Below, piece by piece: positions 2,406-2,884 of a stretch of DNA of 4,005 bases. Source of the DNA: a virus (lineage: Duplodnaviria > Heunggongvirae > Uroviricota > Caudoviricetes). Position 1 is the first letter of the stretch, and each line of letters begins with the position of its first letter. Both the position numbers and the translations under genes were made by a program. Under the pieces are notes generated by a model. The model did not search any database and was not told where the DNA came from. It saw only the letters and a program-made list of their open reading frames with translations. The DNA lies in the IMG/VR virus record IMGVR_UViG_2541047173_000019; one strand, given 5' to 3'.

Positions 2406-2693
2406 TCAGATAGAGAAGGGAAATTGTCGCCGAGAATGTGTCACGCTTACAATCTCAATGCTTGAAGCAGCTACTCTGTACAGGATTATGTAGTTAGGGT
2501 GGGTCACGATCTCTCTCAATCCAGAAACCCGTTCGCTTGGTGGATATAAGTACGGATGCTCAGATAGAGGTAATACCGATGTTTCAATGCGTATTTTTAG
2601 TCTACGTGCTGCCGGTGGGTTCTCCTTGGCGATGTAAGTTATGATCTGGCGCAAATCATCGCGAGCAGACGGTAGCCATAAAATGGGTAACAT
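2406..2693 (-). CDS. parE: type II toxin, RelE/ParE superfamily, ParE-like, 95 aa
   Basis: Product MLPILWLPSARDDLRQIITYIAKENPPAARRL...GLREIVTHPNYIILYRV...IEIVSVTHSRRQFP shows the ParE-family pattern as I know it. The ATG overlaps the antitoxin stop (TAATG). Stop TGA at 2408..2406. Confidence 0.85.
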   Translation of the reverse strand: MLPILWLPSARDDLRQIITYIAKENPPAARRLKIRIETSVLPLSEHPYLYPPSERVSGLREIVTHPNYIILYRVAASSIEIVSVTHSRRQFPFSI

Positions 2694-2884
2694 TACTCGC
2701 TCTTGTTAGTTACAGCAATTTGAGCAATAAGATTTTCCATTTCAGCCATTACCTCGTCATGTGGAATTGCGGGGCGAGTGTCTGCAAGGCTTGACGTTAC
2801 TTTAGTGCGCAACCATTCGTTGTAACTGTTTTCTTGTTCGGTAGTTTCGAATTCTGAAACTATCGGAGAAAGGGCTGTACCCAT
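2693..2884 (-). CDS. small antitoxin partnered with the ParE-like toxin, 63 aa (addiction-module-component type; PaaA-like from memory)
   Basis: Strong AAGAGGAG RBS 7 nt upstream of the ATG at 2884; lies immediately upstream of, and coupled to, the toxin. The C-terminal half (..NEWLRTKVTSSLADTRPAIPHDEVMAEMENLI..) matches the E..W...IPHDEV pattern of small ParE/RelE-partner antitoxins as I recall it. No obvious N-terminal DNA-binding fold. Confidence 0.75.
   Translation of the reverse strand: MGTALSPIVSEFETTEQENSYNEWLRTKVTSSLADTRPAIPHDEVMAEMENLIAQIAVTNKSE

Follow-up and report, generated by a model that had tools for sequence, protein, structure and literature searches.

A three-gene cassette in an immunity-region layout

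The minus strand of the window, meaning the whole 4,005-nt stretch of Caudoviricetes DNA that was analysed, carries three tightly packed open reading frames (ORFs) of 133, 63 and 95 aa, in that order, encoding a helix-turn-helix (HTH) repressor, an antitoxin and a toxin (Table 1). All three are intact and have proper start signals. The minus-strand sequence of the spacer between repressor and antitoxin is CCACAGTACAAGAAGAGGAGTTATGCC, in which a GAGGAG ribosome-binding site precedes the antitoxin ATG by 7 nt. The antitoxin and toxin ORFs share a single base, 2693, in the minus-strand context GAG-TAATG-TTA, where one A both ends the antitoxin TAA stop codon and opens the toxin ATG. A sequence-only reading of the window had described a 27-nt gap to the upstream repressor gene and a TAATG coupling of toxin and antitoxin; the gap is exact, the one-base overlap was confirmed by reading the sequence, and every other feature that it listed is present where it had been placed.

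Table 1. Features of the window, from the ydfA side of the cassette to the ydaT side (positions in the 4,005-nt stretch)
Feature	Position	Strand	Basis and remarks
ydfA (DUF1391), ydfB, DicF RNA, dicB	681-732 (DicF RNA)		Qin-like order, on the ydfA side of the cassette
OL-like pair, candidate operators	2315-2329, 2340-2354	–	2 ACAR-N7-YTGT sites, just past the parE terminator
Intrinsic-terminator-like hairpin TCCCTCTTTCGAGGGA, then TTTTTTT	2362-2387	minus	Hairpin 2387-2372, 19 nt past the toxin stop; terminator scan
Three-gene cassette	2406-2693, 2693-2884, 2912-3313	minus	Toxin, antitoxin and HTH repressor; ORF list
ParE-family toxin gene, 95 aa, very probably parE1 (RefSeq WP_001303876.1)	2406-2693	minus	PF05016, ParE2 structure match
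PaaA-family antitoxin gene, 63 aa, very probably paaA1 (RefSeq WP_000536233.1)	2693-2884	minus	PF21217, PDB matches, identity to PaaA2
Repressor-antitoxin spacer, 27 nt	2885-2911	minus	Repressor stop codon to antitoxin ATG; direct reading
PaaR-type repressor gene, 133 aa (RefSeq WP_000986592.1)	2912-3313	minus	Cro/CI-type HTH N-terminal; DicA/PaaR2-like domain C-terminal
PRM-like arrangement	3311-3325	minus	TAAAAT 3325-3320, 6 nt, repressor ATG 3313-3311; direct reading
OR-like cluster, candidate operators	3325-3339, 3350-3364, 3374-3388	–	3 ACAR-N7-YTGT sites, 24-25 bp apart, between the repressor and cro-like genes
Cro-like (YdaS-family) gene, 90 aa	3422-3694	plus	PF15943 YdaS, E 8e-10; divergent from the repressor
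YdaT recognition site TTGATTCATGAAAATCAA, TTGATT-N6-AATCAA (OM / PRE-like element)	3671-3688	–	Exact match where ydaS and ydaT meet, 0.04 expected
YdaT-family (CII-analogue) gene, cut off at the window end	3678-4005	plus	108/109 identical to the YdaT of the paaR2-type locus

The surroundings have the layout of a lambdoid immunity region, with divergent repressor and cro-like genes, operator-like repeats between them and a second set of these candidate sites past parE. The K-12 Qin region (dicC / dicA-ydfA-ydfB-ydfC-dicF-dicB) likewise has a DicA-like repressor, equal in length and architecture, and the same order of ydfA (DUF1391), ydfB, DicF RNA and dicB. In Qin, however, ydfA directly follows dicA, at 166 nt, whereas in the window the repressor is separated from ydfA by paaA, parE, the terminator and the OL-like sites.

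Families of the antitoxin, toxin and repressor

The sole Pfam family matched by the 63-aa protein is PF21217 PaaA2 (E 5.6e-19; 68.3 bits against a cut-off of 27; model positions 1-33 of 33). A PDB search returned the solved PaaA2 chains 3ZBE, 5CW7 and 5CZE (E 1.4e-20), and 39 of the 63 residues are identical to authentic PaaA2. No RHH (ribbon-helix-helix), ParD, RelB, HTH or other DNA-binding Pfam family was found at E ≤ 1, nor did the NCBIfam scan find a DNA-binding domain. AlphaFold2, run on the single sequence, predicted helices at 15-35 and 42-62 behind an unstructured N-terminus, the first 14 residues being coil, and no beta-strand, all at low confidence (pLDDT 66). A Foldseek search of this model against the PDB returned nothing below E = 8, which is weak by itself since the pLDDT is only 66. 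By homology, the 63-aa PaaA is a two-helix toxin-binding polypeptide without a DNA-binding module, and published work on the family describes PaaA as lacking a DNA-binding domain. PaaA2 is reported to neutralise its cognate ParE and to be degraded by ClpAP/ClpXP; neutralisation has been reported for PaaA1 as well.

Many genomes carry this protein under the PGAP name “type II toxin-antitoxin system RelB family antitoxin”, and the NCBIfam “RelB family” model NF050103 does match it at 92 bits. That model, however, has 45 positions and covers residues 5-49 only, the same segment as Pfam PaaA2; because the RefSeq label derives from NF050103, and so from the PaaA segment alone, it does not imply an RHH. 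A conventional, autoregulating RelB/ParD-type antitoxin with a cryptic or divergent ribbon-helix-helix is exceedingly improbable, given the lack of any RHH, ParD or RelB Pfam match, an N-terminus predicted as coil rather than strand, a length of 63 aa that is too short for an RHH plus a toxin-binding region, and the description of the homologous solved PaaA2 (3ZBE, 5CW7) as devoid of a DNA-binding domain.

The 95-aa protein matches PF05016 over its full length (E 2.9e-17; 63.5 bits against a cut-off of 23). Among solved structures it comes closest to ParE2 of E. coli O157 (5CW7_B, E 3e-36), with 62 of 92 residues identical, and the ParE structures 6X0A, 5CEG and 3KXE were also matched. On this similarity it is a ParE2-like ParE toxin. 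The toxicity of ParE2 has been reported as interference with DNA topology, with SOS induction (PMC8630535). As in canonical parDE systems (RK2, Caulobacter, Vibrio), a ParE-fold toxin is paired with a short helical antitoxin segment that neutralises it; ParD, in contrast, autoregulates and carries an RHH at its N-terminus, a domain that PaaA lacks.

These assignments bear out two proposals of the sequence-only reading, a ParE-like toxin, now placed by PF05016 and 5CW7_B, and an antitoxin without an evident DNA-binding fold. For the latter, Pfam gave PaaA2 with no RHH at E ≤ 1, and fold prediction gave two helices, no strand and no PDB fold match (pLDDT 66). A confident DNA-binding domain, named in advance as the observation that would speak against the proposal, is absent from the Pfam, NCBIfam, AlphaFold2 and Foldseek results.

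The 133-aa repressor contains a Pfam HTH_3 domain (E 2.3e-12), and its best PDB matches are to phage 434 repressor (E 3e-5). The NCBIfam DicA model aligned with it over positions 9-131 of 135 at 51.5 bits, under the cut-off, and K-12 DicA is 28% identical over 111 aa. PaaR2 is 42% identical over the C-terminal 98 aa only (E 1e-20), the N-terminal HTH being unalignable. The protein is DicA-like over its whole length, and its C-terminal domain would place it in the PaaR2 family with a different DNA-recognition head. No LexA-type cleavage domain was detected with Pfam or NCBIfam. The Gln-Gln...Gln pattern of the phage 434 recognition helix (T-Q-Q-x-x-Q-Q) is conserved. The upstream HTH protein is a prophage immunity repressor of the CI/DicA type and no dedicated toxin-antitoxin regulator. 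Omega-epsilon-zeta systems similarly keep DNA binding and antitoxin activity on separate polypeptides, but in them the regulator, omega, is a dedicated plasmid protein, while the DNA-binding partner in this locus is a prophage immunity repressor.

Probable identity of the cassette and divergence from the CP-933P paralogue

Many E. coli O157:H7 chromosomes carry positions 2300-3420 with 100% identity, and across 437 complete E. coli genomes the identity of this stretch is at least 99%; the paaA, parE and repressor ORFs are real genes. In a lower-stringency search, O157:H7 genomes have two PaaA-ParE places each, and strain RM6927 carries both loci, the window type and the paaR2 type, at different positions. 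The paaR2-type reference locus was taken from O55:H7 DEC5E. Its assignment as paaR2-paaA2-parE2 follows from an antitoxin identical to the crystallised PaaA2 and from a regulator beginning with MQKKE, the PaaR2 N-terminus established by N-terminal sequencing (PMC8630535).

Since the other O157:H7 locus is paaR2-paaA2-parE2 of CP-933P, the window cassette is very probably paaR1-paaA1-parE1 of CP-933M/Sp4 (Hallez et al. 2010, Mol Microbiol 76:719), with 100% identical cassette DNA, the name being reached indirectly. CP-933M holds a homologue of paaR2-paaA2-parE2 (PMC8630535). In strain TR01 the cassette lies in a lambdoid prophage adjoining yccA, beside an “ECs1072 family” gene, which fits the presence of ECs1123 and ECs1126 in Sp4/CP-933M. 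Among complete genomes, no match to the whole window was found at 100%; the best, at 99.2%, is a prophage integrated at potC, so the host prophage is not necessarily CP-933M itself. That prophage, found at potC in other strains, has the same three proteins, and the whole window is about 96% identical to the yccA-adjacent prophage of O157:H7, consistent with the same cassette in a slightly different backbone. In RefSeq the antitoxin goes by “RelB family antitoxin” or “hypothetical protein”, the repressor is annotated just as “helix-turn-helix domain-containing protein”, and “toxin YdaT family protein” is the name given to the CII analogue.

The cassette is hosted by cryptic prophages, and in one genome the neighbouring integrase is frameshifted, as might be expected of a decayed, non-functional remnant. 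Yet the three ORFs retain intact frames and start signals, and the cassette is at least 99% identical across the 437 complete genomes noted above. In addition, PMC4803016 reports that PaaA1 does not neutralise ParE2, nor PaaA2 ParE1, which implies that both pairs are active, and the paaA2-parE2 pair is reported to be addictive. Decay is a highly improbable account of this locus.

The CP-933P/Sp12 cassette paaR2-paaA2-parE2 (PDB 3ZBE, 5CW7, 5CZE, 5CZF; Jurenas et al. 2021, PMC8630535) has the same one-strand gene order, and its position, flanked by an OL-like element and a CI-like repressor, is the same as well. Its antitoxin is also 63 aa long and 62% identical to that of the window, and its toxin is 67% identical. 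The YdaT proteins are 99% identical, the OM site is the same 18-mer, and the left flank is conserved, being near-identical from about 2297 leftward. By contrast, DNA similarity between the two cassettes is confined to parE, paaA and the last ~65 nt of the repressor gene (query 12-572). The operators differ (ACAR-N7-YTGT in the window, GTTTAGTAA repeats in CP-933P), as do the spacer (27 nt vs 20 nt) and the antitoxin-toxin junction (TAATG vs TAA-A-ATG). The HTH part of the repressor cannot be aligned, and protein comparison detected no similarity of the Cro-like protein to CP-933P-type YdaS. Because flank and ydaT are near-identical while the Cro-like proteins are unrelated and cassette similarity is limited, the two O157:H7 cassettes appear to act as alternative immunity alleles for a single slot in a common backbone. 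Regulatory details may differ from those of CP-933P, given that the repressor HTH, the operator sequence and the Cro-like protein are all different there.

Divergence between the paralogues is uneven along the proteins. In PaaA, 37 of the first 45 residues are identical to the paaR2-locus protein, against 2 of 18 at residues 46-63; in ParE, identity runs the other way, at 19/39 over residues 1-39 and 43/53 over residues 40-92. This pattern could underlie the reported lack of cross-neutralisation, and what keeps the two pairs insulated from each other could be the last 18 residues of PaaA together with the first 39 of ParE.

Candidate operators and promoters and the proposed control of the operon

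A pattern search found five 15-bp ACAR-N7-YTGT sites in the window against 0.30 expected, and none of 200 shuffles reached five. They bracket the cassette and are likely operators; none of the five falls in the 27-nt gap. The sites at 2315-2329 and 3350-3364 are identical and lie 1035 bp apart. The OL-like pair, with a perfect minus-strand TTGACA at 2340-2335, would be the counterpart of the OL/PL933P element 3′ of parE2 in CP-933P (PMC8630535). The 434-like recognition helix of the repressor would fit the 434-like ACAA half-sites. The OR-like cluster (3325-3388) is also marked by an inverted repeat.

The repressor ATG has no ribosome-binding site, and TAAAAT ends 6 nt upstream of it; together these suggest, by analogy, a leaderless repressor mRNA from the PRM-like start. 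Leaderless translation has been shown experimentally for paaR2 (PMC8630535). At the other end, the hairpin after parE is the only minus-strand terminator in the scan and is likely the 3′ end of a three-gene operon. A YdaT-activated alternative promoter is probably also present, by analogy with the paaR2 prophage: the YdaT motif was defined by footprinting (PMC9986795), and the same 18-mer occurs in the window and in the paaR2 locus. Two plus-strand candidates, a promoter-like match at 2424-2453 and a terminator-like hairpin at 2950-2967, were set aside as chance, their counts being at or below shuffle expectation.

The sequence-only reading had seen no room in the gap for an independent promoter and operator, and we found only the ribosome-binding site there. 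Neither a consensus scan nor a relaxed scan at 8/12 matches gave a minus-strand promoter-like site in 2885-2960, although the scans are insensitive and this is weak evidence, because the consensus scan missed the proposed PRM-, PR- and PL-like promoters too. The same insensitivity leaves some room for a promoter inside the repressor coding sequence or paaA, from which toxin and antitoxin would be expressed independently of the repressor promoter, and weak 8/12 minus-strand matches do occur at 3253-3225 (repressor gene) and 2826-2799 (paaA). Matches of this quality, however, occur about as often as chance would give, at about 3.4 per kb per strand over the window, and none lies in 2885-2960. 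The family is moreover reported, in PMC4803016, to be co-transcribed from upstream of paaR. Transcription from an internal promoter is improbable, and a single operon read from upstream of the repressor is the better account.

Published work on the family describes a common transcript of paaR-paaA-parE that starts at a sigma-70 promoter located upstream of paaR, with PaaR as the repressor (Hallez 2010, as relayed in PMC8630535 and PMC4803016). In function PaaR2 corresponds to lambda CI: it binds operators located between paaR2 and ydaS, and a PL-like promoter beyond parE2 is also repressed by PaaR2 (PMC8630535). In the paaR2 prophage, YdaS has the Cro role and YdaT the CII role (PMC8630535, PMC9986795). 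The sequence-only reading had proposed that regulation is delegated to the upstream HTH protein. These reports (PMC4803016, PMC8630535) support delegation as such, but it may not be total, because PMC4803016 states that the PaaA-ParE complex represses partially, with PaaR required for full repression.

Partial repression by the complex raises the alternative of shared regulation, in which PaaA-ParE contributes to repression, directly or via another factor, and only full repression depends on the HTH repressor. Against this, no DNA-binding family or fold is detectable in PaaA and none is expected in ParE, and later work gives control to PaaR2, YdaS and YdaT, with PaaA2 lacking a DNA-binding domain. 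No three-protein complex was detected according to PMC4803016, and the effect of the complex could be indirect, for example through ParE acting on DNA topology. We regard shared regulation as unlikely, though with a better claim than the other alternatives weighed here. We are highly confident that the region is a paaR-paaA-parE type II toxin-antitoxin operon in a lambdoid (Qin/CP-933M-like) immunity region, under control of the immunity repressor.

By analogy with the published paralogue, PaaA would wrap and neutralise ParE while remaining protease-labile. One mRNA of about 0.95 kb would serve all three genes, starting at the PRM-like, probably leaderless promoter just 5′ of the repressor ATG and ending at the hairpin after parE, near 2365, and a second, YdaT-activated promoter may sit at the ydaS/ydaT junction. 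Two proteins would control the operon, the 133-aa repressor of the CI/DicA type and the Cro-like YdaS protein of the divergent gene, and each would presumably bind the 15-bp ACAR-N7-YTGT sites. The toxin-antitoxin pair would then sit in the lambda rexA-rexB position, on the lysogeny switch of the prophage, with no operator of its own.

The placement of a toxin-antitoxin pair in the rexAB position of an immunity region is a published view (PMC9986795). As in cI-rexA-rexB of phage lambda, accessory genes follow the immunity repressor, operator clusters flank the unit and cro is divergent; the repressor mRNA is leaderless in lambda and in paaR2, as is suggested here. The locus differs from lambda in that its passengers are a toxin-antitoxin pair rather than rexAB, and in that its repressor is small and DicA-like, with no LexA-type cleavage domain detected.

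A more tentative extension, to which we give slightly less than even chances, concerns details specific to this copy. A repressor with a 434-like helix would recognise ACAA/ACAG half-sites in the 15-bp operators, and looping between the three OR-like and two OL-like sites, across the 1035 bp between the identical pair, would enclose the whole toxin-antitoxin operon; the paralogues would be immunity alleles with insulating divergent segments. No description of these copy-specific details (434-like operators, looping, immunity-allele divergence) was found in the literature searched.

The three-component PaaR-PaaA-ParE system, with its antitoxin devoid of a DNA-binding domain and its upstream CI-like repressor in control, is already known, having been discovered in 2010, with structures in 2014-2016 and its regulation described in 2021-2023, and the locus adds nothing new to its biology; only the predicted operators and the promoter geometry of this less-studied copy are so far unreported. 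The three-gene architecture could be inferred correctly from sequence alone, and the annotation obtained for the antitoxin, the repressor and the CII analogue is cleaner than that in RefSeq. For the less-studied paralogue, the analysis provides operator predictions that are testable.

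Relatives of the window and gene order of the leftward operon

Among complete E. coli genomes, no match at 100% to the whole window was found. The best whole-window match, a prophage integrated at potC, shows 99.2% identity over 1-3967, and the window's last 38 bases lie outside all best matches in these genomes. Overall identity of the window to the O157:H7 yccA prophage is 96%, rising to 100% over 2300-3420.

The gene order of the leftward operon is that of dicA-ydfABC-dicF-dicB in Qin, a prophage of E. coli K-12, and the two also share the arrangement of DicF RNA upstream of dicB, with both on one strand (minus in the window). 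An Rfam match to STnc100, overlapping 487-692, was sub-threshold (32 bits vs. 47). The 61-aa open reading frame within this operon is comparable in position and orientation to the “ECs_2282 family putative zinc-binding protein” of the paaR2 locus.

Features of the window, with coordinates and strand
Feature	Coordinates	Strand	Remarks
DUF1482 gene	about 130-321	-	in leftward operon
dicB, cell-division inhibitor	about 318-506 (ATG form)	-	in leftward operon
DicF small RNA	681-732	-	Rfam RF00039, full-length; 65.7 bits vs. gathering score of 48
61-aa ORF, annotated hypothetical	1070-1255	+	CxxC...CPEH motifs; opposite strand within leftward operon
129-aa hypothetical protein gene	1442-1831	-	upstream of dicB and DUF1482 gene
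ydfB	1843-1971	-	upstream of dicB and DUF1482 gene
ydfA-like DUF1391 gene	1973-2128	-	upstream of dicB and DUF1482 gene
ACAR-N7-YTGT sites, predicted operators	2315-2354 and 3325-3388		both ends of repressor-antitoxin-toxin cassette
YdaT (CII analogue) recognition site, TTGATT-N6-AATCAA, exact	3671-3688		ydaS/ydaT junction

Candidate operators and the proposed start of the repressor mRNA

A pattern search for the 15-bp motif ACAR-N7-YTGT returned five sites in the window, against 0.3 expected by chance. Their placement around the cassette resembles that of lambda OL and OR, and their half-sites resemble phage 434 operators; the best structural relative of the repressor is the 434 repressor. 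Between the OL-like sites lies a perfect TTGACA on the minus strand (2340-2335), and a search at the usual distance from it turned up no convincing -10 hexamer. At the other end, on the minus strand (3311-3325), a TAAAAT precedes the repressor ATG by 6 nt and a Shine-Dalgarno sequence is absent, an arrangement which suggests that the repressor mRNA is leaderless, as experimentally shown for paaR2 and also for lambda cI (PMC8630535).

The 18-bp YdaT site, which follows the reported recognition motif (PMC9986795), is identical to an 18-mer in the paaR2 locus. RefSeq still lists the CII analogue under the name “toxin YdaT family protein”; the literature argues against YdaT as a toxin (PMC8630535).

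Divergence from the paaR2 paralogue

Comparison with the paaR2-paaA2-parE2 locus of O55:H7 DEC5E revealed mosaic boundaries at window positions 2297-3665. The flanks of the paralogous cassettes in O157:H7 are near-identical, on the left from about 2297 outwards, in the ydfA leader, and also in ydaT (99%). The operators and the repressor HTH differ between the window cassette and the paaR2-type cassette, and no similarity was detectable between their Cro-like genes. RefSeq labels for the 63-aa antitoxin of the window cassette vary by genome between “RelB family antitoxin” and “hypothetical protein”.

The toxin-antitoxin genes of the two cassettes are ~67-70% identical, with the differences unevenly distributed. 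The last 18 residues of PaaA (window 2693-2746) share 2/18 identities with PaaA2, compared with 37/45 in the preceding residues; in ParE, the N-terminal 39 residues (window 2577-2693) share 19/39 with ParE2, compared with 43/53 afterwards. Cross-neutralisation between the two PaaA/ParE pairs is reported to be absent (PMC4803016), and these two segments, singled out by sequence comparison, are possible determinants of that specificity.
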